From Squalus acanthias (lineage: Eukaryota): a stretch of DNA of 64,000 nt. Within the stretch, counting starts at the first letter, position 1; each line of letters starts with the position of its first letter. Positions 4,056 to 63,014 of this stretch are shown here, piece by piece. A program made the translations under genes and the position numbers. The stretch covers positions 75,332,001 to 75,396,000 of the forward strand of contig CM059432.1 of the NCBI GenBank assembly GCA_030390025.1, written 5' to 3'. Under the pieces are notes generated by a model. The model was not told where the DNA came from. It saw only the letters and a list, made by a program, of their open reading frames with translations, and did not search any database.

Positions 4056-4904
4056 GACTGTGAGCAAGTATTTTGAGCAGGAGCCTTTAAATATGAATGA
4101 AAGCGTTCTCCAGTTGCACCAACACTCCCTGTCACCTTAGGACATTGAATGAAGTTTAGAAAGCTGCTAGAGTTGCAGAAAGTTCCACAGAGCCAGTCAA
4201 ACTGAAGAAATATGTCAACTGCAAGTTGTTGCTGATGAGCACTGCTGAAGCCTCCTTCCTGCTTGTCAGTGCTTGGTCAGCTGGTCGTAATTAACACAGG
4301 CCGGTAAGTTGAGCAGCGCACTCCAAAGTGGCAGATCGGGTGTCAGGTGAGCGTTGCACACTCACTGACATCACGATCTGCATAATCTACATATTGCTAG
4401 TGAGCACGGACATTGGCAGCGCTGCCGCCCACCCGAAAATGGCGGCTGCCACGGGACCTGCCGGTAGCGCACAGAAGTGAGGTGGCTGCCGTTTCTTTTC
4501 CCGAAACGGGCCAAAACAGCCAGCGGTAACACTGCGAATTTCTAGGCTGGTATATTTATAATTAATACAGCCACTCTCACATAGGAACAGGAATAAGCCA
4601 TTTAGTCCCCTGAGTTCCTCCATTCAGTTAGATCATGGATGATCTGTACCTCAACTCTATTTACCCACCATTGCTCTGTATGGCTTGAAAACCCTCCCTA
4701 ACAAAAATCTATCAGTCTCAGTCTTGAAAAATTCTATTGACCCAGAATTCACAGTCTTTTGGGGGAGCAAGTTCCAGATTTCCACTACCTTTTGTGTGAA
4801 AAAATGCTTCCTGATTTCACTCCTATATGCTGGTTTTAGACTGGGGTGGACAAATGTGAGAAGTCGCACAACACCAGGGTATAGTCCAACAGCTTTATTT
4901 GAAA

Positions 4905-4941
4905 TCACAAGCTTTCGGAGCGCTGCTCCTTCGTCAGGTGA
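4905..4941 (-). ncRNA. Minimal hammerhead ribozyme
   Basis: Minus strand TCAC-CTGACGA-A-GGAGC(AGC)GCTCC-GAAAGCTT-GTGA. Confidence 0.8.
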
Positions 4942-4953
4942 AGTCACATGACT

Positions 4954-4990
4954 TCACCTGATGAAGGAGCAGCGCTCCGAAAGCTTGTGA
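4954..4990 (+). ncRNA. Minimal hammerhead ribozyme
   Basis: TCAC-CTGATGA-A-GGAGC(AGC)GCTCC-GAAAGCTT-GTGA. Confidence 0.8.
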
Positions 4991-7421
4991 TTTCAAATAA
5001 AGCTGTAGGACTATAAGCTGGTGTTGTGCGACTTCTCACATTTGTCCACTCCTATATGGCATAGCTCTAATTTTAAAATTGTTCCCCCTTGTTCTGGATT
5101 TCCCCACCAGAGGAAATAGTTTCTCTGCATCTACCCTATTGAATCCCTTTATTATTTAACAACCTCGGTTAAATCACCCCTCAACCTTCTAAACTCAATT
5201 TATACAATCTGTCTGCATAATTTTAACCCTTTAAGACCTGGTGTTATTCTGGTTAATCTGCACTGTACCCACTCCAAGGCCAATATATCTTTCTGGAGTG
5301 TTGGTGTTCAAAACTAATAGCAGTTCTCCAGATGGGATCTGACCACGCCTCTGTACAACCGAAGCATAACTTCCTTCCCTTTGTAATCCAACTCCCTTCA
5401 GATAAAGGCCAACATTCTATTAGACTTGATTACTTTTTGTACCTGTGCACTAGTGATTTTGTGTACATGGAGACCTAAATTCCTTACCCCTCCACAGCTC
5501 CTAGACTCTCACCATTAAGAAAATATTCCGATTTATTTTCCTCGGATGCAAATTGGATGACCTCACACTTCCCACATTGAACTCTGCAGATTGGAAACCC
5601 ACATATAATGAATGTTAGGCATGGCAAGGTAGTGTTTGTTATATGATAGATTTACTGTATGGCATATCTTGGTAAGTCTTTTTTTGTGTAATGACATCGT
5701 CTATAAATATTTCCCAGGTTTTCACTTTGAAATGCAGGGATTTGGAAACTATAATCGCTACATTGTTGCTTCACACGGTTTTATGGATTGGATAATGGGA
5801 CCAGCTCTTTGTCCTGCACCACTCAGCATTCTCAGCAAAATGGGACACTCTCAACTATCCTGCACACCAAGGATCTGCTTCCATTGGCTCAATACTGTGT
5901 TAGCTGAAGGTTTTATTCAGATGGGTGAATGGATCGAAAACCCTGTCAGACATCCTATTTTACAATATGATGGATTCACGCTGGTGAACACTGCACAAGC
6001 TGGCTCCTATGCTTTATAAGCTATGGGTTTAATCATAATATTAAGGCCCCTTGGAGACCAGTGTAGTGAAGCCATACTTATAAGCAAGGCAGACTTTTTG
6101 CTGGGCAATGGAAATATCTGGCCGGCATGCTGACTGTGTGCAGAGGGCACTGAGAAGTTATTTCATGGACACAGGTGGGCCTGGATAGAGATGGCTGGTT
6201 TTAATTGTGCCTTTGAGATGTTAAAAATTAGTGATAACCAACCCTTTATTCATTACAGATAAACAGGCATCCCAGCTGCTCAGCCGCCCACCGGAATTTG
6301 TAATTAGGGCCCTGGTCATGTCAGTGGCTGTTTGCTTTGTGTTGCAGCTGTGCTTTTTACAGATCAGGGCCTTCTTAGTACTTCAAACTCAGTTAGCAAT
6401 TCAAAATGATTTTTTTAAGTAATTTTCAATTTTCACCTTAAAGCATGATTCTGTTTCTGTTCACGCTGTAATGTAATCTAATTATCAAATGGAAAATTAA
6501 GCACCATCATTTTTAATGATGATCATAAACAGGATGTTTTTAAAAATAGCTTTTGAAATTTAAATGTAAAAGTGGGTATGATGGCAGTTGAGCTCCTCCA
6601 GTAGAGTTGCAATCACTTTAAACAGTAATATGGTGAAAAATTATAAATAATAAGACAAAAAAGTGCTTTATGATGATCGAATAGTAGTAGTGACAGTAGT
6701 CTAGAATCTCAGATAATTTGCTGTGGGTTCTTCTCAAACCTCAAGAAAAACTAAATGATCTGAGAGTAATGTATCTTTTAAAAGGGTGCACTGTACCCTA
6801 AGTTTTGTGAGACTGATTCCACTTATTTGAGTGCTATATCAATGCAAGTTGTTGTTGTTTTAAAGCACTGTTACAGATATTCCATTTTGTGTGCGATACT
6901 ATTTCTCTGTTTTTCTTACAAACCAGATACACTACACATTTTGCATCTCTGTGAAGTGGTTTGGCTAATAGTTGGGGTATAATTGAAGTCAAAATTTGGG
7001 TTTGGTTCTTGGGTGTAAAACCAGCACCAGGAGGCAGTCTCACACTGTTTGGGCTTCACACTGGCTACAGACTTTTTAAACTGTAATTTTAAAATGTAAA
7101 AAAATGTAAAGAATCTGCTGAACTACCATTACATTTTTACTGCTAGTGATGAGTTGATTAAACATTTTACTGGCATTTGGACACGGGAGGGAGGGGTGGG
7201 TGGGACTTTCTCTGCTTCCTATTTCCACTATCTTCTCCCTAATTACACTTGTGCAGAGATCTGCTTTCCTCCAATTTGAGAGTAGTATGCAGGCAACACT
7301 AAAACTGAGTGCTGCTGACTCGCACCAATCTAACAAGGTATTGGTGTCATGGCACAACAATGGCATTTACATACTCTGTATCTCTCAGTTCCATTAAAAA
7401 CTGAATAAGTGTTAACACCAG

Positions 7422-8100
7422 AACATAGGAACAGGAGTAGGCCATTCAGCCCCTCGAGCACGTTCCGCCATTCAATTAGATCATAGCTGATCTGTATCTT
7501 AACTTACTCTACCTGCCTTGGTTCTGTAACCCTTAATACCATTGCCTAACAAAAATCTATCAAGCTAAGTTTTGAATTTTCAATTGACCTAGCCTCAACA
7601 GCTATTTGGGAGAGAGAGTTCCAGATTTACACTACCCTTTGTGTGAAGAAGTGCTTTCTGACATCACCCCTGAATGGTCGAGCTCCAATTTTAAGGTTAT
7701 ACCCCCTTGATCTGGACTCTCCCACCAGAGCAGATACTCTATCTACCCTATCAAATCCTTTAATCATCATAAACACTTCAATTAGATCACCCCTTAATCT
7801 TCTATACTCAAGATGCGGAGATGCCGGTGTTGGACTGGGGTGGACAAAAGTGAGAAGTCGCACAACACCATTTTTTTCTATACTCAAGGGAATACAAGCC
7901 TTGTCTGTGCAACTTGTCCTCATAATTTGACCCTTTTAGCCTCTGTATCATTCTGGTGAATCTGCGCTGCACCCACTCCAAAGTCAATACATCCTTCCTG
8001 AGGAGCGATGTCCAGAACTGAATGCAGTACTCCAGATAGGGTCCAACCACAGCTTTGCACAGCTGTAAAATAACTTCCACCCCTTTGTATTCCAGCCCCT
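7422..8100 (-). mobile_element. CR1 LINE 3' fragment
   Basis: PYLEYCIQFW...RRLRGDLIEVF...RKHFFTQRVV and CR1 3' UTR. Confidence 0.88.
7813..7875. mobile_element. Truncated copy of the Penelope-derived mini-element
   Basis: Matches 4838-4876 and 62890-62945; 13-bp TSD TTCTATACTCAAG at 7800-7812 and 7876-7888. Confidence 0.8.
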
Positions 8101-8748
8101 TTTCAGCAGCCTTTAGAAAGTCTGAAATATTCAATAACTGGAATCTGTTCAGAAAACAAGTCACAAGCACGATCATTATACATTTACACTGTAAGAAAAC
8201 TTCAGTCATACTCTTTACAAACATCTGGTAGATCACTTCATTCTGTTGGGGTTAACTTCAAACCTTACTATAAAGCAAGTTTTAAAGGTGCTTTCTGGAA
8301 GTTGTTAAAAGTTTATGAAGTTTACTTCATCACAATTCATTAATATTTGTTCAAAGACTTTTCTTGCCATTACATATTATTGTTTCTTTATAGTATGGCA
8401 CTAGTACTGTTAAATAATTAGGTAAAAGTTCCATAGGTTATTCCAATCCAGTCAGTACAATATCTTAGATCCACAGTGATATTCCTTATTGTAGTTAGGA
8501 CAAAGCCCTTACACAGAACACAAATGCATAGTAATGTGTTGCACATGTAGAGAAATCTCTTAATCGGTAATAAACATTTATCATTAGATGGGAATATCCA
8601 AGACTTCCATTTCTATCTGCTAAAGATAATTGAAAGGGATTTTTTTTTGGGGGGGGGGGGGAAGAGTTTAGAAAATTGTTTGTTGCAGATAATAAGTATT
8701 GTACTTAAAAATAAAATTAGACATGGTGACATGTCTTGCAGACACCTT

Positions 8749-9089
8749 GGCCCCAATACTTAATGGAGGTGGGGAGCGTGCGGGGGAGGCCAAAAGCGAC
8801 TGAAGAACTCGGCAAGGCCGGGGACATGGAGGTGCTGCTGAATTTAATGGCAGGGCCTCATTCTAATTTTATTCTTCCCTTTTCCACCTGGCAGCCAGCC
8901 GAATTGACAGGCTTGTCGGCTGTCGGGCGGGAAAACTGCACGCCACTCAACCTGCCGCCGTAAAAATGGTGGCAGACGCATTCGCGTCGGTTTGGGGTCG
9001 TGTTTTATGTTTTTTTAAGTGCTCAACCCCCTCCTCCTCGACCTCCTCCTGCCCTTTATGTGGGGTGGGGGGAGGTTAATATTGAGCCC
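8749..9089. mobile_element. Harbinger-type MITE
   Basis: TIR GGCCCCAATACT / AATATTGAGCCC; TSD CTT on both sides. Confidence 0.6.
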
Positions 9090-9612
9090 CTTCTGTCTAA
9101 GTTTACACATGAAGAATGGCCACTTGGATGAGGTACTGGAAGACAGCTGGCACATGTGTAACCATACTCCAACGAGAGGCCGAGCTTTCAGGAGAGGAGA
9201 AGAAGGGGGAAATTATGGGATGAATCTTGCTGGAAAAGTAATGGATTATTAACGACGCACGCTGTTATTAATGCATAAATCGGCCAGCAAATTCAAGGGA
9301 TTAAGAGATACAGCATGAGTTGTGAATCTCCAGAACTTGCTGATCGATTTACATTGCTACACTGTTTGCTTTGCACAAACGGCATCTCAACCTTAGCCTC
9401 CCCGTTATTTTTAAGAACTTGCTGGATTTGCACATTAATTGTCCATTAAACTCGCCGCAGAAAGTTAGGGTTGGTGATTAAGAGCATAAGCACCTTTTTA
9501 ACTGCGTAATAATTGTTAATGCAATGCCAATCAACCTCTCTGGCCCAGAAAGGGAATAGCTTAAACAATTCAATCTCATTCCTGAATGTCGTAAATTCTT
9601 CTTAGAGATTAA

Positions 9613-10304
9613 GGAGGTGAAATTTGGTTGCTTTGCGCCTCCCGTTAGCGCCCTAAAAGGGCGCTAACGGGGTGCAAAGCAACTAGCACCCAGGCGCGGC
9701 ACCGCAAACGTCCTCCCTGCGAAATTCAGCGGGAGGTAAGCGGTGGCGGTAACAGTTAGCGCGGCGCTGCGCCGCCAGCGATGATGTCATCGCCGTGCGC
9801 AGCACCCTGCTCGTGCCCTGCCGCAATCTTCGGTAGTGCCCCCTAACTTACCGCTGGACGCTATGTCCAACGGGGTCGGGGGGCCTACCTGTGGCCGGGG
9901 CGGCACTTATTAAAGGCGAGGTGCCGGGTGGCCATTTTTGTAGCTGGCTGCCTGCCAGCATGTGACTCCGTTGCCATCCCTGGCCTCCTGAGAACCCCCC
10001 CCCCCCCCCCCCCCCCCCGCAGAGTGCCGGCTGCGCTCCACGAGCTGGGCCCCGGGTCGCGCTGTGCAAGGCCCCTCCCCTTTAAGAAGGGGAAGAAGGA
10101 CTGCACTACCGTGGCACGATATGCCGCGATATTCCCTTGCAGCACCCCAAGAGGGAGGCGGGGCACTTCCAGTAGCACCCTGCTTCCCTCTTGGGGCACT
10201 ACCGATGAATTTCGACCGCGGGGGTGCTAATTTTTTCGGGGCTCTAAAAGTAGCGCCCCGGCAAAGTTAGCACCCCAAAGAGGGCGCGACTCAATTTTTC
10301 CCCC
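9613..10304 (-). mobile_element. Harbinger MITE family 1 (~700 bp, CpG-rich)
   Basis: TIR GGAGGTGAAATT / AATTTTTCCCCC; flanks TAA/TTA; reverse-complement homolog of 10830-11570 and 28604-29308. Confidence 0.85.
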
Positions 10305-10829
10305 TTAAAAATTTCAAATTTTAAATGTTTTTCTTTTTTTTCCTTTCTGTCTCTTTTTGCTCTTTCTTTATCCAATCTTTCTTTCCCTCTCTTAATTTTT
10401 CTTTCTGTACCTGATTTGACTCAAATTCACCCACTCTAATTCATGTTATTTCTCCATCGTTCCTCTGTTAGAATCATAGGCCGCAATTTTGCCGGCGCTC
10501 AGAGGGCGGGTTTGGAGGTGGGTCCGGGGTTAAAATCAAACTGAAGTGGCCATCCAGCATCCACGCAACTTTACAGAGTGTCGGGTCTGCGAGTTCCGAT
10601 CAGACCTGACACCAAGTGGCGGGTGAGCCACAACAGCTTGTTAACTGCCTGGATAATCCTATTTTAAGAGGCTCTTCCCATTTTGCAACATTTTCAGCAT
10701 GTTGCACATCATGCGACAAACATGCCAGCTGATTGTGCCGGGTTCAGCAACTACGCGAATTCTTGACAGCTGCTCCTGCAGCATAAAAGCCGACCTGTAA
10801 CATGGTTGACTTTCAGATGACAGAACTTT

Positions 10830-11570
10830 GGGGTAAAAATTGAGTCGCGCCCCAATTGGGGCGCTAACCTCGCCGGGGCGCGACTTTTAGCGCCCCGAAA
10901 AAATTAGCGGCCCCGCGCTGGAACTTCAGTGGTTGCGCCCCAAGAGGGAAGCGGGGCGCCACTGGAAGCACCCCGCATCCCTCTTGGGGCGCTGCGAGGG
11001 CGCTGCGGCACGTCGCGCCGCGGTATTGCAGGCCTTCCTCCCCTTCTTAAAGGGGAGGGACCCTGCGCAGCGCGAACCGGGGCCCAGCTGGGCCCCCAGG
11101 GATCGGGAGTGCCGGCAAAAGAGCCCGCCACTCAAGAGAAGTGCCGGGCTCTTGGAGCGCAGCCGGCACTTCACGGTGGGGGGGCTTCACGGGGGCCGGG
11201 GACAGCAACGGGGGCAGGTGCTGGCAGGCGGCCAGCAACAAAAATGGCCGCCTGCCACCTCCCCTTTAAATATCGCCGCCCCGGCCGCACGTACGCCTCC
11301 CTGAACCCGTCGGACATAGCGTCTGGCGGTAAATCAGGGGGCGCGACTGAAGATCACGGCCGGGGCGCGAGCGGGGTGCTGCGCACGGCGATGACGTCAT
11401 CGCCGGCGGCGCAGCGCCACAGGGCGCTACCGGCTGCCGCCGCCGCTAACCTCCCGCTGAATTTTTCGGGAGGCGTGGGCGGCGCTGCGCCCGGGCGTTA
11501 GCTGCTTTACGCCCCATTAGCGCCCTCTTAAGGCGCTAACGGGAGGCGCAAGCAGCTGAATTTTTCCCCC
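10830..11570 (+). mobile_element. Harbinger MITE family 1 nested in element B
   Basis: TIR GGGGTAAAAATT / AATTTTTCCCCC; TSD TTT. Confidence 0.88.
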
Positions 11571-11722
11571 TTTGTGTTTTGAGGTTTTGGAACACATTTT
11601 GCTGGTCTATTGAGCTTGTAAGTGTTTAATCTGAGATCCATGGACCTCCATGGAATACCCTCTCCCCACATTGACTGAGCGCTTATAACATCTCTTCCTC
11701 AATTGAGATATATACCAGCAGA

Positions 11723-12955
11723 ATGGGAACCATTTATACCCTCTCATCCTGGCCCTCAGAATCGGAGGAAGAGCAGCCGCGGCAGCAGCAGAACCAGGCA
11801 CAACAGCAGCATCAACAACAGGAGCGCCAACCTTCTCCTCACCCACCTGATGCTGCACAGGGCAGAGGGCATCAGCGCAGGGCTGCACCTCGCCGCAGAA
11901 GATACCCGCAACACAGGGTTTACAGGCCGAGGATGACCTTCCTCAACATGAGTGAGCAGCAGTGCCAAAGGAGGCTGAGACTTTTGCGAGAGGTAGTCGC
12001 TGAGATCTGCATAATGCTGCACCAACACCTGGAGCCCAGAGGAGCGGGTGGACACTCCTTACCAGTGGCTGTCAAAGTCACCACCGCACTCAACTTCTTT
12101 GCTTCAGGGTCCTTCCAGTGATCAGCAGTAGACATCAGCGGCATTTCCCAGTCGGCCGCACACAGTTGCATCACGCAGGTTACCGATGCCCTCTTTGCCA
12201 AGTCGCACAATTACATCCACTTCTCCATGGATGAAGCAAGTGTTACCGCGCGTGCGGTTGGCTTTGCAAATATGGCAGGCTTCCCAAGGGTGCAGGGCAT
12301 CGTAGACTGCACACATGTGGCCATTAGGGCATCCCATCACAACCCAGCTGTATTTGTCAACCGCAAGGGCTTCCACTCCCTTAATGTCCAGCTGGTGTGT
12401 AACCACAGGAGCATCATCATGCATGTTTGCGCCAAGTTCCCTGGCAGTTGCCATGACTCGTTCATCCTGTGGTAGTCTACGTTGCCTCAGCTGTTCAGTC
12501 CGCCAACCCAACTTTCCGGGTGGCTCCTTGGAGACAAGGGCTATCCCTTGAAGACATGGCTAATGACACCGATGAGGAGGCCATCAAACAAAGCTGAGGA
12601 GCGCTACAATGAGAGCCACATTTCCACCAGAAGCATCATAGAGCAAACCATCGGCTTGCTCAAAATGCGATTCAGATGCCTCGACAGATCAGGTGGAGCC
12701 CTGCAGTACTCACCAGCCAGGGTCTCCAGAATCATCATGGTCTGCTGTGCCCTGCACAACATCGCACAGCAATGTGGCTTAGCGCTGCCTGAGGAACAAA
12801 TGGCTCAGTGCACAGCCTCCTTGGAAGAGGAGGAGGAGGACAAGGCGGCAGATGAGGAAGACCTTGCGGAGGCGGATGCGCCAGTTCCACCAGCATGCGA
12901 GCACATTGCTGGCCGTGAGGCAAGGGATACACTAATCCATGCCAGATTCACGTAA
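11723..12955 (+). pseudogene. Harbinger (HARBI1-like) DDE transposase, single frame with two premature stops
   Basis: ORFs 11723-12121, 12227-12475 and 12482-12955 share one frame; motifs [36 protein letters not shown]. Confidence 0.95.
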
Positions 12956-21907: not shown

Positions 21908-21934
21908 ACTCTATGCAGCTCTTAAATATCACCA

Positions 21935-25400: not shown

Positions 25401-26750
25401 CTATATTTGGCTGTGCATCACCCCCTACTATAGCTCCACTCCGCATCCCATCCCCCTGCCAAGTTAGTTTAAACCCCCCCCACAACAGCCCTAGCAAAGC
25501 TCCCCGCAAGGATGTTGGTCCCGTTCCGGTTCAGGTGCAACCCGTCCGACTTGTACAGGTCCCAACTTCCCCAGAAACAGACCCAGTGATCCAGGAAACT
25601 AAAGCCCTCCCTCCTGCACCAACTCTTTAGCCACGCATTCATCTGCTCTATGCTCCTATTTCTATACTCACTAGTACGTGGCACCGGGAGTAACCCAGAG
25701 ATTTAGGGGGAAAAATTCAGTATCGCCCCGTTTGGGGCACAATTATCAGCCGGGCGCAAAGATTAGCGCCCGGCGCTAATTATCGCCTCCGACTGCAAAC
25801 TTGACTTTTATCGCCCCTGGAGGTGATTGGAGCGCTAAATCAGGCGCTACACATCTGTCTTAAGGCGCAAAGGCTGAGGAGCGAGGCGCTAACTCAGAGC
25901 GCTGGCGAAGCTCATGAGATGTCAGTCAGCAATGGAACACAGACACAATGGCCCCGGCCAGTTCTTAAAGGGGAGGGTTGATCTTGCTTTCCATCCACAT
26001 CCTGCTCATTGCAGCCTTGAATCTCGGCCTGGAGAGACCTGTACATCAAATCTGCTGGAAATAACAATGGAGAGGCCCAGGGAAAGAGCTCAGAGTGCAG
26101 CCCCCACAGTCTCTTCTAAATCGATACAAGGAATGGCAAATCAAAATTAACCTGCAAAGTGCTGCTCAGTACCCAAACTCCTTCACACAGCGTTGAATCT
26201 CTCCAGAAGTCTCTCTCTCTCTCTCTCAGAATGCGTGGTTCAAACATGTCACCAGCAAAAAAAGGCAGGAAGCGGTCACCTTTAAATAGTGCTCCCCCAG
26301 TCCCTTCATGACTGCAAAATGCTCCCCTCAACCTGTCGTTGCTAGCGGCAGGCGGTAAGGCAGGGGGCGCCGCTCACAATCTGCTCCGGGGCACTACCGG
26401 GGCGTTGCGCACTCGACTGACGTCACGATCTGCCGGCGCAGGAGATCATGGCGGTACTGTTTAGCGCCACCGCAAAATGTCTAGTTAATTTCGTGAACGG
26501 CGCAAACATCGCTGCACCCGGGCGCTAGTTGCTTTGCGCCACATTAGCGCCCTCTTAAGGTGATAACGGGAGGCGCAACCAACTGAATTTTTCCCCCTTA
26601 ATCTGTTACCTAGTTCCCTAAATTTTTGTTGCAGGACCTCATCCCTCTTTCTACCTATGTCGTTGATACCAATGTGAACCATGACCTCTGACTGTTCGCC
26701 CTCCCCCTTCAGAATGCCCTGCAGCTGTTCAGTGACATCCTTGACCCTTC
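22450..26750 (-). mobile_element. Long CR1 LINE (ORF1 esterase part, ORF2 APE endonuclease and RT), degenerate
   Basis: ORF1 HIGINDIG and DGLHLN; EN NARSL, ETWL, YRPP, GDFN, SDH; RT GVPQGSVLGP, FADD; split by stops and frameshifts. Confidence 0.95.
25706..26597 (-). mobile_element. Harbinger MITE family 2 (~890 bp) inserted in CR1 ORF1
   Basis: TIR GGGGGAAAAATT / AATTTTTCCCCC; TSD TTA; inverted homolog of 42435-43327 and 52077-52968. Confidence 0.9.
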
Positions 26751-27364: not shown

Positions 27365-27890
27365 AAATCCGTCTTTCGGATGGGACGTTAAACTGAGGCC
27401 CCGTCTGCCCTTTCAGGTGGACATAAAAGATCCACGGCACTATTCAAACAAGAGCAGGGGAGTTCTCTCCGGGATTCTTGCAAAATTTATCCCTCAACCA
27501 ACGTCTCTAAAGAAAAAAAATCTAATTCCTGATACAAAAGCAAAATACTGCGGATGCTGGAAATCTGAAATAAAAACAGAAAATGCTGGAAATACTCAGC
27601 AGGTCAGGCAGCATCCGTGGAGAGAGAAACAGAGTTAACATTCATCGACCTGAAATGTTAACTGTTTCTCTCTCCACAGGTGCTACCTGACCTGCTGAGT
27701 ATTTCCAGCATTTTCTTTTTTGATCTCATTTCTGTTTGTGGGAGCTTGCTGTGCGCAAGATCAATTTGGCTGCTGCGTTTCGCTATATTACAACAGTGAC
27801 TACACTTCAAAAGTACTTCATTGGCTGTAATGTGCTTTGGGACATCCTGAGGTTGTGAAAGGAATTATATAAATGCAAGTTCTTTCTTTT
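27365..27890 (+). mobile_element. Deu-SINE (SacSINE1-like), 5' truncated
   Basis: Deu-domain GACGTTAAACTGAGGCCCCGTCTGC...GTGGACATAAAAGATCC; tail TATAAATGCAAG. Confidence 0.8.
27531..27720. mobile_element. Penelope pseudo-LTR inverted remnant inside the Deu-SINE
   Basis: Inverted arms ~27578-27642 / 27653-27716 homologous to 668-740. Confidence 0.82.
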
Positions 27891-31127: not shown

Positions 31128-31720
31128 TAAGAAACATAAGAAATAGGAACAGGAGTAGGCCATTTGGCTCCTCGCGCCTGCTCTGCCATTCAATAAGATC
31201 ATGGCTGATCTTCAACCTCAATTCCACTTTCCTGCACTATCCCCATATCCCTTGATTCCTCTAGAGTCCAAAAGTCTATCGCTCTCTGTCTTGAATATAC
31301 TCACAGTAACTCTACCTGAAGAAGGGGCAGGATAGCTCCGAAAGCTTGTAATTTTAAATAAATCTGTTGGACTATAACCTGGTGTTGTGCGACTTCTCAT
31401 TTTTGAATATACTCAAAGACTCAGCATCCGCAGCCCTTTGGGGCAGAGAATTCCAAAGATTCACAACCCTCTGAGTGAAGAAATTCCTCCTCATCTCAGT
31501 TTGAAAAGGCCGACCCCTTATCCTGAGACTATGCCCCCTAGTTTTAGATTCTCCAGCCAGGGGAAACAACCTCTCAGTATCTATCCTGTCAAACCCCTCA
31601 GAATCTTATATGTTTCACTGAGATCACCTCTCATTCTTCTAAACGCCAGAGAGTATAGGCCCAATCTACTCAATCTCTCCTCGTAGGATAACCCTCTCAT
31701 CCCAGGAATCAATCTAGTGA
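31128..31720 (-). mobile_element. CR1 LINE 3' fragment
   Basis: FPLAGESKTRGHSLRI...RNFFTQRVVNLWNSLP; AAGAAACAT tail. Confidence 0.88.
31304..31402 (+). mobile_element. Penelope-derived mini-element with hammerhead (31313-31350)
   Basis: TAC-CTGAAGA-A-GGGGC(AGGATA)GCTCC-GAAAGCTT-GTA; 13-bp TSD TTGAATATACTCA at 31291-31303 and 31403-31415. Confidence 0.85.
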
Positions 31721-41412: not shown

Positions 41413-43915
41413 AAACAACAACAACTTGTATTTATATAGCACCTTTAACATAGTCCCAAGGTGCTTCACAGGAGAATTATAAAACAAAACTTAAAATCAA
41501 GCCACATAAGGAGATATTAAGGCAGTAAAGAGTTAAGTTTTAAGGAGCGTCTTAAAGGAGGAGAGAGAGGTAGAGAGGCAGAGAGGTTTAGGGAGGGACT
41601 TCCAGAGCTTAGGGCCTTGGCAGCTGAAGGCACGGCCACCAGTGGTGCAGTGATTAAAATCAGGCATGCTCAAGAGGTCGGAATTAGAGGAGCTCAGATA
41701 TCTCAGAGAATTGTGGGGATTACAGAGATAGGGAGGGGGGAGGTATTTGAAAACAAGGGTAAGAAATTTAAAATCGAGGCGTTGCTTAACCGGGAGCCAA
41801 TGTAGCTCAGCGCGCACAGAGGTGATGGGTGAACGGGACTTGGAGCGAAGTAGGATATGGGCAGCAGAGTTTTGGATGACCTTAAGTTTACGTAGGGTAG
41901 AACATGGGAGGCCAGTCAGGAGTATGTTGGAATAGTCAAGTGTAGAGGTAACAAAGGCATGGATGAAGATTTCAGTAGCAGATGAGTTGAGGCAGGGGCA
42001 GAGACAGGCGATGTTACGGAGGTGGAAATAGACGGTCTTAATTATGCCGCGGATATGTGGTCAGAAGCTCATTTCATGGTCAAATATGACACCAAGGTTG
42101 CGAACAGTGTGGTTCAGTGTCAGACAGGTGCTCGGGAGAGGGATGGAGTTGGTGGCTAGGGAATGGAGTTTGTGGTGGGGATCGAAGATAATGACTTCGG
42201 TCTTCCCCATATTTAGTTGGATGAAATTTCTGCTCATCCAGAACTGGATGTCGGACAAGCAGTCAGACAATTTAGAGACAGTGGAGGAGTTAAGAGAAGT
42301 GGTAGTGAGGTAGAGCTGGGTGTCATCAGCATACATGTAGAAACTGACGCTGTGTTTTCGGATGATGTCGCCAAGGGGCAGCATGTAGATGAGAAATAGA
42401 AGGGGGCCAAGGACATATCCTTTGGGGACACCAGGGGGTAAAAATTCACTTGGTTGCGCCTCCCGTTAGTGCCTTAAGAGGGCGCTAATGGGGCGCAAAG
42501 CCGCTAACGCCCGGGCGCAGCGATGTTTGCGCCGCTCGAGAACTTAACTTGAGATTGTGCGGCGCCGCTAAAACTTACCGCTGCGACCACCTGCGCGCGC
42601 AGATTGTGACGTCATTCCATGGTGCAACGCCCTTGTGGCGCCCCGTAGCGGAAATTGAGTGGCGCCCCCTGCCTTACCGCCTGGCGCTTCCAACGACCAG
42701 AAGACTGGAACGCTATCAATCGCTGTGGGGCTGGGGGGGGCGCTATTTAAAGGGGGCCTCTTCCTGTCTTTTATTGTTGGTGGCATTTTTGAACTACGCA
42801 TTCTGAGAGAGAGAGGGAGAGACTTCTGGAGAGATTCAACGTTGTGTGAAGGAGTTTTGGGTACTGAGCAGCACTTTACAGGTTCATTTTGATTTGCCAT
42901 TCCTTGTATCGATTTAGCAGAGACTGTGGGAGCTGCACTCTGAGCTCTTTGCCTGGTACTCTCCATTGTTCTTTCCAGCACATTTGATGTGCAAGTTTCT
43001 CCAGGCCGAGATTCAAGGTAGCAATGAACAGGATGTGGATGGAAAGCAAGATTAACCATCCCCTTTAAGAACTGGCCCGTGCCATTGTGTGTGTGTTCCA
43101 TTGCTGACTGACATTACATGAGCTTCGCCAGCGCTCCGAGTTAGCGCCTCACTGCTCGGCCTTTGCGCCTTAAGAGAGGTGTGCAGCGCCTGCTTTAGCG
43201 CTCCACTCACCTCCCGGGGCGGTAAAAGTGAAGTTTCCTGTCAGTGCCGATAATTAGCGCCAGACGCTAATATTTGCGTCCGGACGATATTTGCGCCCCA
43301 AATGGGGCGCGACCTAATTTCTACCCCCAGAGGTAACAATGCGGGAGCGGGAAGAGAAGCCATTGCAGGTGATTCTCTGGCTACGATTAGATAGATAAGA
43401 ATGGAACCAGGCACGTGCAGTCCCACCCAGCTGGATGATGGTGGAGAGGCATTAGGGGAGGATCGAGCGGTCAACTGTGTCAAAGGTTGCAGACAGGTCG
43501 AGAAGGACGAGGAGGGATAGTTTACCTTTGTCACAGTTACATAGGATGTCATTTGTGACTTTGATAAGAGCCGTTTTGGTACTGTGGCGGAGCAGAAACC
43601 TGATTGGAGAGATTCACACATGGAGTTTCAGGAAAGATGGGCACGGATTTGGGAGGCGACAACATGTTCAAGGACTTTGGAGAGGAAAGGGAGGTGGGAG
43701 ATAGGGCTGTAGTTTGCAAGGATGGACAGGTCAAGGGTTGGTTTTTTGAGGAGAGGGGTGATGACGGCAGATATGAAGGAGAGGGGAACAGTACCTGAGG
43801 AGAGAGAACCATTAAAAATATCAGCTAACATGGGAGCCAGAAAAGTTGGGTGCTCAGCAGTTTAGTGGGAATAGGGTCAAGGGAGCAGGAAGTGGGTCTT
43901 ATGGACAAGATGAGC
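41413..43915 (-). mobile_element. L2 LINE 3' half (RT)
   Basis: YADDTQLY, VRNLGVIFD, LHWLPV, GGRAFS; (ACA)n tail. Confidence 0.92.
42435..43327 (+). mobile_element. Harbinger MITE family 2 inserted in L2
   Basis: TIR GGGGTAAAAATT / AATTTCTACCCC; TSD CAG, and removing the element rejoins the L2 RT sequence. Confidence 0.9.
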
Positions 43916-51900: not shown

Positions 51901-52076
51901 CTAATATTTCAATCCTGACCACGCTACTGACCCTGTCCCTGCAATTTGGGATGGCATTGGCGTCCTTTGGAGTCAGCAGATTTAGGCTTCACTCTACCAT
52001 TCAACCAGTGGAGCAGGGCCAATGAAATTTCAACCCCTCAGTTTTCTGACAGTTTAGTACCTTCTGTACACATCTA

Positions 52077-52968
52077 GGGGGAAAAATTCGGTTGGATTGC
52101 GCCTCCCGTTAGCGCCTTAAGAGGGCGCTAATGGGGCGCAAAGCAACTAGCGCCCGTGCGCAGTGATGTTTGCGCCGCTCACGAAATTAACTAGACATTT
52201 TGTGGCGGCGCTAAACACTACCGCCATGACCTCCTGCGCCGGCCGATCGTGACGTCAGTTGAGAGTGCAACGCCCCGGTAGCGCCACGGACCGGATATTG
52301 AGTGGCACCCCCTCTTACCGCCTGCCGTTAGCAACGACAGGTTGAGAGGAGCGTTTTGCAGTCAGGAAGGGACTGGGGGAGAGCTATTTAAAGGCGACCG
52401 CTTCCTGCCTTTTTTTGTCGGCGAAATTTTTGCACCACGCATTCTGAGAGAGAGAGAGAGAGACTGCAGGAGATATTCAAAGCTGTGTTGAGGAGTTTTG
52501 GGTACTGAGCAGCACTTTGCAGGTTCTTTCTGGTTTGATCTTCCTTGCATCGATTTAGAAGAGAATATGGGGGCTGCAGTCTGAACTCTTTCCCTGGGCC
52601 TCTCCATTGTTCTTTCCAGCAGAATTGATGTACAGGTCTCTCCAGGCCGAGATTCAAGGCTGCAATGAGCAGGGTGTGGATGGAGAGCAAGATCGATCCT
52701 CCCCTTTAAGAACTGGCCGGCGCCAGTGTGTCTGTGTTCCATTGCTGACTGACATCACATGAGCTTCGCCAGCGCTCTGAGGTAGTGCCTAGCTCCTCGG
52801 CCTTTGCGCCTTAAGACAGGTGTGTAGCGCCTGATTTAGCGCTCCAATCACCTCCAGGGGCGATAAAAGGCAAGTTTGCAGTCGGAGGCGATAATTAGCG
52901 GCAGGCGCTAAACTTTGCGCCCGGCCGATAATCGCGCCCCAAACGGGGCAATACTGAATTTCTCCCCC
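52077..52968 (+). mobile_element. Harbinger MITE family 2
   Basis: TIR GGGGGAAAAATT / AATTTCTCCCCC; TSD CTA. Confidence 0.9.
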
Positions 52969-54446: not shown

Positions 54447-54930
54447 CCTTTCCACCATCTACAAGACACAAGTAAGGAGTGTGATGGAATACTCTCCACT
54501 TGCCTGGATGAGTGCAGCTCCAACAATACTCAAGAAGCTCGACACCATCCAGGACAAAGCAGCCCTTTTGATTGGCAAACCATCCACCACCTTAAACATT
54601 CACTCCCTCCACCACTGGCGTACTGTGGCTGCAGTGTGTACCATCTACAAGATTCACTGCAGCAACTCGCCAAGGCTTCTTCGGCAGCACCTCCCAAACC
54701 CGCGACCTCTTCCACCTAGAAGTACAAGGGCAGCAGGCGCATGGGAACACCACCACCTCCAAGTTCCCCTCCAAGTCACACACCATCCTGACTTGGGAGT
54801 ACCTTCACCACACGGACTGCAGCGGTTCAAGAAGGCGGCTCACCACCACCTTCTCAAGGGCAACTAGGGATGGGCAATAAATGCTTGTCTTGCCAGCGAC
54901 GCCCAGATCCCATAAGCGAATTAAAAAAAA
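54447..54930 (+). mobile_element. 3' fragment of the same LINE family as 48931-50040
   Basis: MEYSPLAWMSAAPT...FKKAAHHHLLKGN and the same 3' tail. Confidence 0.88.
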
Positions 54931-55619
54931 AGCTATAAAGACATTTCTACCATACAAACCAGTATCCAAACAACTTACTTTTAAAACAGATGCCTATTTT
55001 CAAATTTTTCTCTGCTACTTTTCTCCGCTTTACCCTTGAGGACATACTGGAATATAGTTCTGGGGTACCAGTTGCTCTGATACCTCACTCACGTGGCCAT
55101 AATTCGCATGTGAGCTTTGACAGTGAATATTTTCAAGCTATTGAAACATGAGAAGCATCACAACCATACCTGATCCTGACCCCACGCAACATACTCACTG
55201 GATAAGCAATCAGGAGCCAGAACTCTTGGCAATTGTCCTCTCCCTAACATTGGGGTGCTGCAACCAACTGTAGAACCCCTATCAGCACTCTGAACTAAGA
55301 TCAGCTAATTTACCACAGACTGCAGATTGAACCTGGAACTCTCTGGTCTGTATGACTCTGCTGTTCACTGGATAGAACAGCAAGAAAACTACCAGGAGGG
55401 TGATTCTACGATCTGGCATTTTAAGCATGGAGTGGCGCTCACAGGGAATTCATCTCAGGAAACTGTAGGCATGCACCCCACAAATTTCCATCCATAATTT
55501 TAAAAGATCACCATGTGTATGACTGCAGTATTCCAAGATGCACTCTCTGTGAGCGCCGCCAGTTGCTGAACGCGCTAGATTGTGGAACTGCCCCCCACTG
55601 ACAGAACTCAATCCATACC

Positions 55620-56603
55620 CCGCTGTTTCCACATGTACGTTGATGACACCCAGCTCTACCTCACCACCACCTCTCTCGACCCCTCCACTCTCTCTAAATT
55701 GTCAGACTGCTTGTCTGACCTCCAGTACTGGATGAGCAGAAATTTTCTCCAACTAAATATTGGGAAGACTGAAGCCATTGTCTTCAGTCCCCGCCACAAA
55801 CTCCGTTCCATAGCCACCAACTCCATCTCTTTCCCTGGTAACTGTCTGAGACTGAACCAGACTGTTCGCAACCTTGGTGTCATATTTGACCCGGAATGAA
55901 CTTCCGACCATATAGCCGTAGCATAACTAAGACCGCCTATTTCCACCTCTGTAACATCGCCCGACTCCACCCCTGCCTCAGCTCATCTGCTGCTGAAACC
56001 CTCATTTGCTGCCTTTAAACTTGACTATTCCGATGCACTCCTGGCTGGCCTCCCATTTTCTACCCTCCGTAAACTTGAGGTCATCCAAAACTCTGCTGCC
56101 CGTGTCCTAACTCGCACCAAGTCCCGTTCACCCATCACCCCTGTGCTCGCTGACCTACACTGGCTCCCGGTTAAGCAAAGCCTCGATTTTAGAATTCTCA
56201 TCCTTGTTTTCAAATCCCTTCATGGCCTCGCCCCTCCCTATCTCTGTAATCTCCTCAGCCCTACAACCACCCCCCCCCCCACCCCCCAAGATATCTGCAT
56301 TCCTCTAATTCTGGCCTCTTGAGCTTCCCCAAATTTAATCGCTCTAGCATTGGCGGCCGTGCCTTCAGCTGCCAAGGCCCTAAGCTCTGGAATTCCCTCC
56401 TTATCCTCTCCGCCTCGCTACCTCTCTTTCCTCCTTTAAGACGCTCCTTAAAACCTACCTCTTTGACCAAGCTTCTGGTCACCTGTCCTAATATCTCCTT
56501 ATGTGGCTCGGTGTCAAATTTTGCTTGATAATGCTGCTGTGAAGTGCCTTGGGACATTTTACTACGTTAAAGAGGCTATATAAATACAAATTGTTGTTGT
56601 TGT
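55620..56603 (+). mobile_element. L2 LINE 3' fragment
   Basis: YVDDTQLY, VRNLGVIFD, GGRAFSCQGPKLWNSL; (TGT)n tail. Confidence 0.9.
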
Positions 56604-57999
56604 ATATCAAGCCTGGCTAAGGAGGTTTCAGGTTACTTTTTATTGATTTTACCAAAATAGCAAAACTTTTGAGACATTTGGTATGAAGACTGCTTCATTC
56701 ACTTTTATCCACATCTGAGAAAAAAAATAATGGCATGCAGCCAACACTGCACATGTTTTTAAAGTGCTGTTTGTTGATAATATTGCAATGGGCTGAAAAA
56801 TAATCTGTGAGAATAAATGCATCATATAAAGAAGCTTATTAAATCAAAACTTTTACAGGTCTCTCCCATTGATTGCTGGTGGTCAGTTTACTTCTAATCC
56901 ATTCTATCATTATCATATGCTAGAATTAGTGGCACTGTGTGTTCAATAAGTCTTCGTAGGCATCCCTGTATTTGGGTTGCATTGAATCAGTTATTATGTC
57001 AGGAGACTCAGTAAGTCAATTTGTTGTGCCATTTTATTGAAGAATGCACAGTCCTGTCTCACTGCTCTGACAGTCATTCTAGCTGCATTATTCAATAAAT
57101 CTATTTAAATTGTACGCAGTATTTCTCTCCACCTGGAAAACTTCCAAAGTGGTCTATTTCATCTGGCTAATGTCAGGAAAGTATAGCTAAAGAACGCTAC
57201 AAAACTCTGTCACTGTAGCCAGGAATTGATTTATCAGGCCAAGGGACTGAAGAGGATCCTCACGGAACGCAGGGAGGCTGAAAGAAGGACGGAACTGGTA
57301 AGAAGAAAGGGAAAAAGGAAATGAAAGAAAAGCAAGGAAATCAATTTGATAGAGAGAGAGCGAGAGAGCTTCATATTTTACTCAAGCTCTTCTGATCCAG
57401 CTTTTCTCTAAAACTCCAGTTAGACCCATGCAGTGACAGTATTGGTTGTGTTACCTTGAATTAAATCTAAATTGAAAGCTAACTCAACTTGGAGATTAAT
57501 TAATTCCAAGATCCAGCTCTGCTTGGGTAGAGTTTGCTTGAATTTAATCTGAGCTAAACTACTGTTCCAAATCAAAGTTCTTCACAGAAACAGTGCACAT
57601 CAGCAGAATGTGGAATAAAGCCAAACAAGAAACTCCTCCCTCCAGCTGACAGTCTTTGACTGTGGTTTGAAACCCAGTTTATTCTGCAACAACCTTGTGA
57701 AGAAGGTCATCTCAAAGACTCAGAGAAAACCTACAATATTAAATAAAATATGGCTGGAGTTTTCTGCTTCCACACTCACCAGTCCTCAATTCACTTTAAT
57801 GGACGGATAATTGTGGGCTGGCCAGTACTGAAATGAAAAACCCTAGCCCAGGTGTCCTGTATAATAACAATACTATTCCACAAATCTAGCAATCATTTTA
57901 GCTTTATTTGCAGAACTCACTACCACATGAAATAGTTGAAATGAATAGCATAGATGCATTTAAGGGGAAGCTAGATAAGTACATGAGGGAGAAACAAAT

Positions 58000-59682
58000 A
58001 CATAGGATTACATAGGATAAAAAGCACAGAACAAGCCAATCGGCCCAACCAGTCCATGCCGGCGTTTATGCTCCACTCGAGCCTCCTCCCATCTTTCCTC
58101 ACCTATCTCTATCAGCATAACGCTCTATTCCCTTCTCCCTTCTGCTTATCTAGCCTTCCCTTAAATGCATCTATACTTTTCATTTCAAATACTCCCTGTG
58201 GTAGCGAGTTCCACATTCTCACCACTCGCTGGGTAAAGAAGTTCCTTCTGAATTCCCTTTTTGATTTCTTGGTCACTATCTTATATTGATGGCCTCTAGT
58301 TTTGCTCTTCCCCACAAGTGGAAACACTCTCTCTGTGTCTACTCTATCAAAACCTTTCATAATTTTAAAGACCTTTATTAGGTCATCCCTCAGCCGTCTC
58401 TTTTCAAGAGAAATGAGACCCAGCCTGTTCATCCTTTCCTGATAGGTATACCCTCGCATTTCTGGTATCATCCTTGTACATCTTTTTTGCACCCTTTCTA
58501 GTGCCTCTGTATCTTTTTTATAATATTATCGACCAGAATTGTACACAGTACTCCAAGTGTGGTCTAACCAAGGTTCGATACAAGTTTAGCATAACTTCGC
58601 TACTTTTCAATTCTATCCCTCTAGAAATAAACCCTAGTGCTTGGTTTGCTTTTTTTTATGGCCTTATTAACCTGTGTTGCTACTTTTAGTAATTTGTGTA
58701 TTTGTACTCCGAGATCCCTTTGCTCTTCTACCCCATTTAGATTCTTATTTTCCAAGTAATATGTGACCTCCTTATTTTTCTTACCAAAATGTAATGCCTC
58801 ACATTTATTTGTGTTGAAATTCATTTGCCAATTGTATGCCCATTCTGCAAGTTTATTGATATCTTCTTGTAATTTGTTGCAGTCCTCCTCAGTATTGAAT
58901 TTGGTGTCATCCTCAATTTTAGAAATTGTGTTTTTGATTCCAAAGTCTAAATCATTAATATAAATTGTGAACAACATTGGTCCCAGCACTGATCCTTGTG
59001 GACCACCACAACCCACCTTCTGCCACTCTGAATAGCTACCCTTTACTCCTACTCTCTATTTTCTGTTGTGAAGCCAGCTAGCTATCCATTCTGCTACTTG
59101 TCCCCTGACTCCGCATGCTCTGACCTTATTCATTAGTCTATTATGTGGTACCTTATCGAAGGCCTTTTGGAAATCTAGATAAATTACATCTACTACATTA
59201 CCCTTGTCTACTCTCTCTGTTACCTCTTCAAAGAATTCAATGAGGTTGGTCAAGCAAGACTTTCCCTTTTGTAATCCATGCTGACTATTCATTATTAGAT
59301 TTTTGGTTTGGAGATTTTCTTCTATTTTTTTCCATTAGTAGGGATTCCATTATTTTTCCTACCATTGATCTTAAGCTGACTGGTCTATAGTTCCCTGGAC
59401 ATGTTCTATCTCCCTTCTTAAATATAGGTATTAGTTTAGCTATTTGCCAGTCCTCGAGCACTACACCTTTTTCTAACTATTAAATATGTGTAATAGTGCC
59501 TCTGCTATCTCTTCCCTTGATTCTTTTAAAATGCGCGGATGTAATTTGTCCAGACCAGGGGTTTTATCCTCTTTGAGTTTGATTAATTTATTTAATATTT
59601 CTCCTCTTTTTATTTTAAATGTGGTTATATCATTTCTGATCTCATCATCCAATGTCATGTCCACCTGATCTGTCTCCCTGAT
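58000..59682 (-). mobile_element. CR1 LINE RT region, degenerate
   Basis: KTPGLDKLHPRILKE, YLDFQKAFDKVPH, PQGSVLGP, RNFFTQRVV. Confidence 0.9.
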
Positions 59683-59895
59683 AAATCTGGAACTCACTGC
59701 CTGAAAGGGTGGTAGAGGCAGGAACCCTCACAACAGTCAAGAAGCATTTAGATGAGGACTTGAAACGCCATAGCATACAAGGCTACGGACCAAGTGCTGG
59801 AAAATGGGATTAGAATAGACAGGGCTTGATGGCCGGCGCGGACACGATGGGCTGAAGGGCCTCTTTCTGTGCTGTATAACTCTATATGACTCGAT
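59683..59895 (+). mobile_element. CR1 3' end, same subfamily as the 22450 element
   Basis: Reverse-complement match to ~22455-22660. Confidence 0.85.
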
Positions 59896-60698
59896 GACTC
59901 ACTTTATTTTAACCATCTTTTTACACTCCTGTTCTGTAACTCTATTTATAGAAGGATATGTTGATAGGGAACCATGCAAATGGGAATATTTTACCAAATC
60001 ACTTCACTCATATAAAAAAATCAAACGCTAAAGGAATCATCTAGGATTTTACAATTTACCCCGATTTGTTTCCTTATTCATGATTTCATGTTGGCTTGAA
60101 CATTCAGCCTTATATAAGCTTCATCTATTCATTCCATGTGCAACATGTAAATTGTGGCTCTTAAGCAGCTGCCCTGACACATAATCCATGCATTTACTAG
60201 ATATACTGTTAATTCTTTGTGACAAGCAACAGAATCCTTCGTACTCCTGAATGGTACATTCTACAGCAGGCAGTCTAATGAGTGCTGTGTAATCAATAGA
60301 GCTTGTCTGTTTAACTCCAGTTAGGATTAGTAATGGGCTTGAAATTAGGGAGTGATATTAATATTTCTTTTTACTAATTATTCTGTATTGCAATTTAACG
60401 TCTGTTCTCTGTTTATTGTGTTCATTATACTTTCCAAGTTGTTATATATCAGGTACCTTGGTTTTCAGGGTGTAAGCTTAATGTGATGGTTATACCATAA
60501 TATCTGTTGGCCACTTGAAGGGTGGGGGGGAAGCAAGATTTAGGAAATAGAGCAAAACTTCAGCTAGATGAAAGAATAGCTGAATTGCACCAAATTATCA
60601 ATTTTTTAAGGTGTCACAGATATCAACTCCAGCAGTTTTAACCGCCTTTTAAGAAAGTGTGAATTTAGCAGCAGATTCACAATAGTAGTGACTCAAAG

Positions 60699-62156
60699 GT
60701 CCCAATATTTACTTGGAGCCAGGAAGAGAGCAGGGGGAGGGGTTTGCAGACAGAAAACTCTAAATTACGGGGTTCCTGCAGGTCCTACCGAACTTAACAG
60801 TAAAACCAGTTTTTAAATTTTTCAGGTAAGTCAGAGGTCGCATGGAGGCAGGAGGGAAGACAATCACGGCGGGGGGGGGGGGGGGGGGGTTGGAAATTGC
60901 GGTTGTTGGTGGGGACAGTTGGAATCACAGTGAGCGGCTAGATATCACGGGGTGGGGGGGTGAGCAGTCAGAGATGGTGGGGTGGGGGGTGAGCAGTCAG
61001 AGATGGTGGGGTGGGGGGGGTGAGCAGTCAGAGATGGTGGAGTGGGGGGTGAGCAGTCAGAGATGGTGGGGTGGGGGGGGGGTGAGCAGTCAGAGATGGT
61101 GGGGTGGGGGGGGGGGTGAGCAGTCAGAGATCGCGGGGGTGGGGGGGGTGAGCAGTCAGAGATGGTGGGGTGGGGGGTGAGCAGTCAGAGATGGTGGGGT
61201 GGGGGGGTGAGCAGTCAGAGATGGTGGGGTGGGGGGTGAGCAGTCAGAGATGGTGGGGTGGGGGGGGGGGTGAGCAGTCAGAGATCGCGGGGTGGGGGGG
61301 GTGAGCAGTCAGAGATGGTGGGGTGGGGGGTGAGCAGTCAGAGATGGTGGGGTGGGGGGTGAGCAGTCAGAGATGGTGGGGTGGGGGGTGAGCAGTCAGA
61401 GATGGTGGGGTGGGGGGGGGTGAGCAGTCAGAGATCGCGGGGGTGGGGGGGTGAGCAGTCAGAGATGGTGGGGTGGGGGGTGAGCAGTCAGAGATGGTGG
61501 GGTGGGGGGGTGAGCAGTCAGAGATGGTGGGGTGGGGGGGGGGTGAGCAGTCAGAGATCGCGGGGTGGGGGGGGTGAGCAGTCAGAGATGGTGGGGTGGG
61601 GGGGGTGAGCAGTCAGAGATGGTGGGGTGGAGGGTGAGCAGCCAAGATCGCGGGGGTACGGGGTGGGGGGGGGGGGGTGGTGGGGGTGAGTGAGGGATGA
61701 TCACGGGAGCAGTCGGAAATGATGGTGAGCAGCTAGAGATTGTAGGGGAGTCAGACGTCCTGGTGTCCGATAATGGGGTATGTAAAGAGGTTAGTTTGGG
61801 AGGCCAGGGGATGCAATCCTGCTCCTCCTGACCCACAAGCAGTGCTGGAAATGCATTTACCCTATGGATCCGGCCCTTCTCGCCTCCTTTTAGCTGCTGC
61901 GATCCTGCGCCTGGGGAACCCGGCCTCTACGGGTTAAAAATTAAAATGTAGGCAAAATGGAGCACGCAGCCTCCTTAAAAGGTTATACTGACCGACCCAC
62001 ATCCTGAGATTGGGTTGGTCATCCGCCCCCAACCCGCCCTCCGTTAAAACCGGAAGTGGGCGGGTTGGAGGCAGGTTGGGGTCAGGTTTGAAAAATTTAC
62101 ATTTTTTATCTCCCACCCACCTCCAACCCACCCATGCCTGGGGGTTAAAATCTCCC
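60699..62156. mobile_element. Probable Harbinger-type non-autonomous element carrying a minisatellite
   Basis: GGTCCCAATATTTAC ... GGTTAAAATCTCCC ends; right part resembles the 8749-9089 element. Confidence 0.5.
60960..61650 (+). repeat. G-rich minisatellite, ~22 units of GAGCAGTCAGAGATGGTGGGGTG(n)T
   Basis: Tandem units of ~29-35 bp counted by eye. Confidence 0.95.
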
Positions 62157-62386
62157 TCCTAACATTACAATGCAATCTTATGATACATTGGGGTAATTTT
62201 TCCATCAACTAGGCAGTTATATGCTGGAGCAGATCGCCCAATCTTTATAGAACCCACCCGATTTTCATTCCAGATTACTGCCCAGAACAAGAATCTACCC
62301 CATTATTCCTTCAAGAGCAATGCATTCCGTTAAGGTGAAAAAAATCGGGCTAATGCATGGACTTCACACCATTCATTTCAATATGA

Positions 62387-62760
62387 CAACAACAACTTGC
62401 ATTTATGCAGCGCCTTTAACGTAGCAAAACATCCCAAGGTTCTTCACAGGAGCGATTATCAAACAACATTTGACACCGAGCCACATAAGGAGATAGGACA
62501 GATGACCAAAAGCTTGTTCAAAGAGGCAGGTATTAAGGACCCTATTAAAGGAGGAGAGAGAGGTAGAGAGGTAGAGAGGTTTAGGGAGGGAATTCCAGAG
62601 TTCAGGGTCTAGATAGCTGAAGGCACACCGCCAAAGGTGGAGCAATTAAAATCGGGGACTGCAAGAGGCCGTAATTGGAGGAGTGCAGACATCTCAGGGT
62701 TGTCAGGCTGGAGGAGGTTACAGAGATAGGGATCGAGGCCATGGGGGGATTTGATTTGAT
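62387..62760 (-). mobile_element. L2 3' end
   Basis: Matches 41413-41760; (ACA)n tail. Confidence 0.8.
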
Positions 62761-62887
62761 GGAATTTGAACATTCCAGATACAAGCAAGTTATTCCTCTT
62801 CTAATTTGTTCTTGTTCTTGATTTAAAATGCATAGATTGTCGGGTAGAGTTTGTGATAGAATAGATTATCCATATATTCTGGACATG

Positions 62888-63014
62888 ATGTGGAGATGCC
62901 GGCGTTGGACTGGGGTGGACAAAAATGAGAAGTCGCACAACACCAGGTTATAGTCCAACAGATTTATTTAATTTTACAAGCTTTCGAAGCAGTTCGCTCC
63001 TTCGTCAGGTAAGT
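62888..63014 (-). mobile_element. Penelope-derived mini-element with hammerhead (62974-63012)
   Basis: Minus strand TTAC-CTGACGA-A-GGAGC(GAACT)GCTTC-GAAAGCTT-GTAA; homologous to 4838-4945. Confidence 0.82.

Follow-up and report, generated by a model that had tools for sequence, protein, structure and literature searches.

Truncated Penelope-like elements (PLEs) have left thousands of solitary minimal hammerhead ribozymes in genomes, with low activity as dimers (PMC4209133). For the Poseidon element of Anolis (PAc), two priming sites were demonstrated in vitro; its ribozyme needed protein to cleave and was dispensable for insertion (PMC11167929). Non-long-terminal-repeat (non-LTR) retrozymes are described as tandem head-to-tail arrays that yield circular RNAs (PMC7229834), and a preprint in which one cartilaginous fish is sampled sets retrozymes derived from pseudo-LTRs (pLTRs) apart from truncated PLE insertions (10.64898/2026.07.22.740005). 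Hammerhead-bearing repeats related to these systems recur in a 64,000-nt stretch of the Squalus acanthias genome (GenBank assembly GCA_030390025.1, contig CM059432.1, positions 75,332,001 to 75,396,000, forward strand), the whole of which is called the window here. An earlier note on the window, made from its letters, had proposed either a separate non-autonomous, retrozyme-like family or ultra-truncated pLTRs of a Penelope lineage other than the one represented at 31–748. The repeats are very probably 5′-truncated, duplication-flanked pLTR ends of a protein-coding Penelope-like retrotransposon of the same genome, likely a Neptune element, and were likely inserted by its own endonuclease and reverse transcriptase (RT). 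What carries this reading is observed directly, namely the parent structure, the identity of the copies to it, the target duplications, the two discrete 3′ ends and the head-to-head pairs of a long and a short arm. The family is a new member of a kind of element that is itself already known; no earlier description of it was found in the literature searched, which covered few subscription journals and excluded Repbase and Dfam, and which is not proof of absence.

Evidence for a coding parent came from 262 loci fetched around listed matches to the hammerhead core, mostly on one contig (C1) and chosen by intact-core patterns. At three of these, L032, L261 and L262, direct pLTRs flank an open reading frame (ORF), with hammerhead cores 3.05–3.13 kb apart. 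L032 consists of a pLTR, an uninterrupted ORF of 892 aa and a second pLTR. L262 has an uninterrupted 891-aa ORF between two pLTRs with an AGC loop II and is 96–97% identical to the window arms at 4827–5052, while L261 is arranged as inverted pLTR, pLTR, ORF with one stop and pLTR. A further locus, L072, retains ORF codons 647–891 (the last 245) upstream of a pLTR. The window copies are 94–99% identical to full-length parents or to such a sister copy with the 3′ part of the ORF. The L032 protein matches the Pfam model RVT_1 (E 2.3e-8), and its ORF contains the motifs GxKF, DKG and YIDD, a CX4CxxC linker at residues 753–761 between RT and endonuclease, and an endonuclease of the pattern VVYLIRC...YIGET...GLN. 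A CX2-5CxxC linker marks Neptune or Nematis (PMC8557442), and Neptune is the likely clade of the parent. The closest named homologs are shark proteins (80–92% identity), followed by proteins of turtles and invertebrates (35–46%); a PDB sequence search gave 0 matches. The full-length parent with RT, GIY-YIG endonuclease and this pLTR for which the earlier note had suggested looking thus exists in L032 and L262, the endonuclease being recognized by motifs, and the ultra-truncated pLTR option of that note was correct, since ORF-bearing parents carry the same pLTR.

The four places at which one sequence had been said to recur do share it (blastn, 84–95% identity to the copy at 62886–63016), and all four insertions have a target duplication, of 12, 13, 13 and 11 bp. 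Copy 1, described earlier as a repeat at 4830–5046, is a head-to-head pair of two arms within one 12-bp duplication (4818–4829 and 5047–5058, plus strand), of which 3 nt at either end match the element too. The inverted arm (4830–4944, minus strand) is a pLTR end in which a minimal hammerhead (AGC loop, core C3 at 4937) is combined with the long, tail-bearing 3′ end; it is 96.6% identical to L262 over 118 nt. The direct arm (4951–5049, plus strand; core C3 at 4958, AGC loop) starts 7 nt before its core, has the short 3′ end and is 96.1% identical to L262 over 102 nt. From the hammerhead numbering, the predicted cut in the direct arm would fall between 4986 and 4987. Copy 2 (7813–7870, minus strand), 95% identical to L262 and flanked by a 13-bp duplication (7800–7812 and 7876–7888), shares the sequence but is a tail-only fragment of 58 bp without a hammerhead core. 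Copy 3 is a single arm with a short 3′ end (31304–31402, plus strand; core C3 at 31316, AGGATA loop) within a 13-bp duplication (31291–31303 and 31403–31415), and matches L072 at 99% over 104 nt (window 31300–31403). Copy 4 had been placed at 62888–63014; it actually spans 62884–63058 (minus strand) and comprises about 45 nt of 3′ untranslated region (UTR), a hammerhead (core C3 at 63008, GAACT loop) and a long tail, the final triplet of which is the ATG of the parent ORF (62886–62884). Its duplication measures 11 bp (62873–62883 and 63059–63069), and window 62881–63057 is 97.7% identical to full-length L032 over 177 nt, ATG included. Copies 1–3 lie in or beside members of one older repeat family (window 4732–5126, 7579–7744 and 31395–31598), which by its appearance we take to be derived from a long interspersed nuclear element.

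The same anatomy recurs at the fetched loci. Two clusters, separated by about 37–42 nt, hold the 3′ ends of 314 unique arms, and the later cluster lies at the ATG. Among 112 head-to-head pairs, 105 combine a long with a short arm, 5 are short with short and 2 were called long with long, one arm of each of these two lying at the cut-off. Duplications of at least 9 nt, with a mode of 12, were found in 99 of the 112 pairs versus 6 of 300 mismatched controls. As in endonuclease-bearing (EN+) PLEs, 5′ truncation goes together with an adjacent inverted copy (window 4830–5049 and the 112 pairs), and a tail of 30–40 bp is present at a single end only. Copy sizes grade from 58 bp up to full length, inversion junctions vary between loci, and sequencing-contig depth forms a gradient that drops toward the 5′ end of the ORF. 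At L234 and L237 (~1500–1600), an arm that reaches about 70–80 nt into the ORF directly abuts a second copy beginning at a site 7 nt before the core. By analogy with PAc of the anole, the endonuclease would introduce nicks staggered by about 12 bp; from each of them, cDNA synthesis would be primed at one of two internal sites located on either side of the tail, and the two cDNAs would join head to head, or one would be lost to leave a single arm.

The 5′ ends are also clustered. With 60 junction-selected loci (L081–L140) left out and AGC loci oversampled, 52 of 104 GTG-clade arms start no more than 17 nt before the core, 2 start 18–49 nt before it and 50 extend further; in the GTA clade, where AGC loci are likewise oversampled, 19 of 92 arms start within 18 nt before the core. 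In long copies, an initiator (Inr)-like site, the +1 of which would be 7 nt ahead of the core, is preceded at a distance of about 30 nt by a TATATAT box. In window copy 1 both arms begin at this −7 site, each preceded by a G. A G at a 5′ junction is linked to copying of the RNA cap. Genome-wide, the nucleotide preceding the Inr-like site is G in 3,857 cases and A in 577, and long copies have C or T there. Judged by eye, neither the partner arm nor a point change explains 12 of 30 junctions with G and 22 of 30 with A, and the excess of G after this correction is about 3.5-fold. A fairer count puts 10 of 104 arms at −7, a peak of 69 arms being inflated by the 60 junction-chosen loci. A pLTR with TATA and Inr-like sequences is known from rotifer elements (PMC3846280). 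These data suggest that many 5′ ends likely reflect priming in the 5′ pLTR followed by run-off to the capped start of the RNA. The shortest copies would result from priming of the mRNA in its 5′ pLTR, with RT running off at the RNA 5′ end immediately before the hammerhead; copies of this kind are without the TATA-like box and would be dead ends. No pile-up of 5′ ends was seen at the predicted ribozyme cut, where 2 of 415 arms start exactly, in a sample biased toward intact cores. The proposal that copies start at the cut was rejected on this count, and cleavage does not seem to be what sets the ends of the copies.

Several points weigh against parts of this reading. Given how the loci were chosen, the proportions reported here are not genome-wide estimates, and chance neighbors make up a few of the 112 pairs. 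The Pfam GIY-YIG model gave no match to the L032 protein, and the parent endonuclease is called from motifs, pairwise likeness and the presence of PF01541 in some homologs. For the 5′ ends, one raw RNA run gave 0 placed reads, 18 of 30 extra-G junctions are explicable by the partner arm (by eye), and stalling of RT at stem I would also cluster ends. Finally, Penelope of Drosophila virilis uses a TATA-less internal promoter (PMC2377424).

The hammerhead itself was recognized by a motif scan that required stems I and II of at least 3 and a palindromic stem III. The four cores reported previously, of the form CTGANGA-A-stem II-GAAAGCTT, were recovered at 4958(+), 4937(−), 31316(+) and 63008(−), together with a fifth, of another family, at 653(+); none appeared in any of 100 shuffles of the window (2-mer block shuffles). 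Loops AGC, AGC, AGGATA and GAACT, and changes in stem II to G-U pairs, are as had been described, as is the assignment to Penelope-type minimal hammerheads with a palindromic stem III. The motifs have the core boxes, the extra nucleotide before stem II, the G10.1-C11.1 pair, the palindromic stem III and the short stem I by which minimal PLE hammerheads are defined (PMC4209133). In the 3.7-Gb Squalus acanthias genome the core pattern has 56,473 exact matches, with 0 for a reversed control. An Rfam scan of the window, a check that the earlier note had proposed, returned no hammerhead at E≤1; its 7 weak matches are all to other models. Only a dimer is predicted to adopt the hammerhead fold.

The short copies could in principle be a self-propagating, non-autonomous family of hammerhead-cut RNAs moved in trans, a form of the retrozyme-like option of the earlier note. 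AGC-loop arms are abundant (20,113 exact matches in the genome) and mostly very short (33 of 50 start no more than 16 nt from the core); solo pLTRs of greater length still have the TATA-like box and might give rise to short non-coding RNAs; 4 same-strand core pairs 127–208 bp apart occur among the 262 fetched loci; and derivation of retrozymes from pLTRs is described in the preprint cited above (10.64898/2026.07.22.740005). We nonetheless regard this as very unlikely. The pLTRs of the short copies also flank ORFs in parents that look autonomous, rather than forming a separate non-coding lineage, and sizes grade from the shortest fragment to full length. In particular, an AGC subfamily without a coding parent was rejected on finding the L262 ORF between AGC-loop pLTRs. 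Inversion junctions that differ by locus also argue against a self-propagating short family, 5′ ends lie upstream of the predicted cut rather than at it, and the shortest copies are without the TATA-like box. No head-to-tail array of at least two hammerhead units, the arrangement that defines retrozymes, was found in the window. At L063:418-545, L146:597-766 and L175:383, younger copies lie in older pLTRs, within the TATA-rich UTR, and the result is a short direct tandem of two different hammerheads. L063 is one of the four close same-strand pairs and is visibly a copy inserted in the UTR of another. Such insertions of younger into older pLTRs could be a start of partial tandems or retrozyme-like dimers.

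Even if the repeats are truncated pLTR ends of a coding PLE, the hammerhead-like motif could have lost its catalytic activity and be carried passively in the pLTR, its apparent stems reflecting descent only. The claim that three variants show covariation in stem I amounts to one compensatory change, at pair 3, and in the copy at 31316 the fourth pair is a C-A mismatch. Genome-wide, over 52,299 of the 56,473 cores, pair 3 is C-G in 34,717, T-A in 16,905, T-G in 474 and C-A in 203; the change is a single swap from C-G to T-A between two subfamily groups. Among 127 long copies, site −3 is tracked by the unpaired +8 site in 121 and by its paired +3 site in 123, and pair 4 is broken in 27. Because an unpaired site tracks −3 as well as the paired one does, and pair 4 is often broken, covariation within the family is inseparable from subfamily descent. 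The lack of an Rfam hammerhead match fits a passive motif, as does the finding that cleavage is unnecessary for in vitro insertion of the anole element (PMC11167929). When folded without constraints, some monomers formed stems I and II, and unconstrained co-folding of two copies gave a double-hammerhead fold for 0 of 5 motifs, a result that says little. A structural role has better support from three other comparisons. The unrelated family at 653 retains an identical core with wholly different yet paired stems and another palindrome, a T-G intermediate is present at stem I pair 3 in both arms of the long-UTR copy L070, and loop II takes more than 10 forms while stem II remains paired. We consider a purely passive motif unlikely.

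A further observation concerns the two arms of single insertions. Loop II length differs between arms in 20 of 86 pairs with both loops, one arm always being of the AGC type; a stricter recount gave 20 of 82, with a few chance or mixed neighbors included. The downstream subfamily site nevertheless agrees in 42 of 42 AG-loop pairs of the GTG clade, including all 15 with discordant loops. Derivation of the arms from two random RNAs was rejected, as this agreement is found even though the site is mixed about 59:45 in AGC arms. On a GTA-clade background the AGC loop occurs 119 times, and at 19 of 30 selected loci of this type the partner arm has another loop (GACA, GATA, AACA, AGGATA or one of 8 nt, truncated in one) yet shares the downstream subfamily site and, for the most part, the upstream letters, as judged by eye. 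Where loop length differs within one subfamily background, AGC is always the foreign cassette. Because partner loops differ while flanking sites agree, a short core cassette seems to be exchanged. At L203 and L214 (~1500), short-patch differences between arms also lie just 3′ of the predicted cut, and the exchange is therefore not limited to the loop II cassette. Among the pieces listed in a search for swapped arms outside this assembly, none reached across both the loop and the downstream site. No prior description of cassette exchange was found in the literature searched, which included few subscription journals and is not proof of absence.

One proposal is that the insertions record a hammerhead dimer at work. 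Both nicks would prime on one RNA, at its two tail sites, and RT would hop at the palindromic stem III onto the core of the partner RNA and back. Such hopping would account for a foreign stem II/loop II cassette in one arm of some pairs when the sites flanking it match those of the partner. We consider this improbable. Ectopic gene conversion at hairpins from the commonest subfamily, or an assembly artifact, remain as other accounts of the cassette swap. Should the exchange stem from hopping between templates in a ribozyme dimer, it would amount to evidence at the genomic level for dimers in vivo; together with run-off to a capped start, template hopping would offer a testable scheme for the inverted repeats of Penelope and for the purpose of the ribozyme.

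Other features of the window include the second Penelope-like family, a 3′ fragment of an endonuclease with a stop codon and its own minimal hammerhead at 653–681 (ACGT palindrome), at 31–748 on the plus strand. That this lineage is distinct, as the earlier note had stated, was confirmed: its endonuclease is 40% identical to that of the parent over 78 aa, and the stems differ. A small head-to-head fold-back of the 31–748 family lies at 27569–27719, with arms that meet near 27642. At 9603–9697, 42424–43327, 52067–52968 and 25706–26597 lie members of a dispersed family whose units contain internal hairpins; it is probably a small repeat of DNA-transposon-like type, and a weak Rfam microRNA match at 9623–9687 falls in one of the members. 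Tandem units of about 29 nt make up a G-rich array at 60919–61685.

As it stands, this is a further Penelope-like family of high copy number whose minimal hammerhead is the one expected, an ordinary addition. Tens of thousands of young insertions alongside intact parents make steps of Penelope integration testable by counting, among them the use of two priming sites, head-to-head joining and the role of the ribozyme. The closest parallel is with EN+ PLEs of the Neptune type, which share the single ORF of RT with C-terminal GIY-YIG endonuclease, pLTRs with a hammerhead, heavy 5′ truncation, an adjacent inverted copy, a 30–40 bp tail at one end, a short target duplication and a CX2-5CxxC linker (PMC8557442; PMC3846280); no structural difference from that type, as far as it is described there, was seen here. 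The rule of one long and one short arm, which in those accounts is qualitative, was counted here and is near-strict. With minimal metazoan PLE hammerheads the motif shares the core, the extra nucleotide that separates positions 9 and 10.1, G10.1-C11.1, a palindromic 15-16 region and a short stem I, and more than 56,000 exact cores compare with 4,000–9,000 in coelacanth and Xenopus, obtained by a different search (PMC4209133). Like non-LTR retrozymes (PMC7229834; 10.64898/2026.07.22.740005), the repeats are non-coding units with a type I hammerhead from PLE pLTRs, but the insertions are single or head-to-head ends of a coding element rather than arrays. As in PAc, two internal priming sites would bracket the tail, and insertions end at either (PMC11167929). 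A difference from PAc lies in the layout relative to the ORF. The PAc ORF starts inside the hammerhead, with priming 111–118 nt into the ORF (PMC11167929), whereas in the shark family about 120 nt separate the hammerhead from the ATG downstream of it, and the ATG is where the long end falls.

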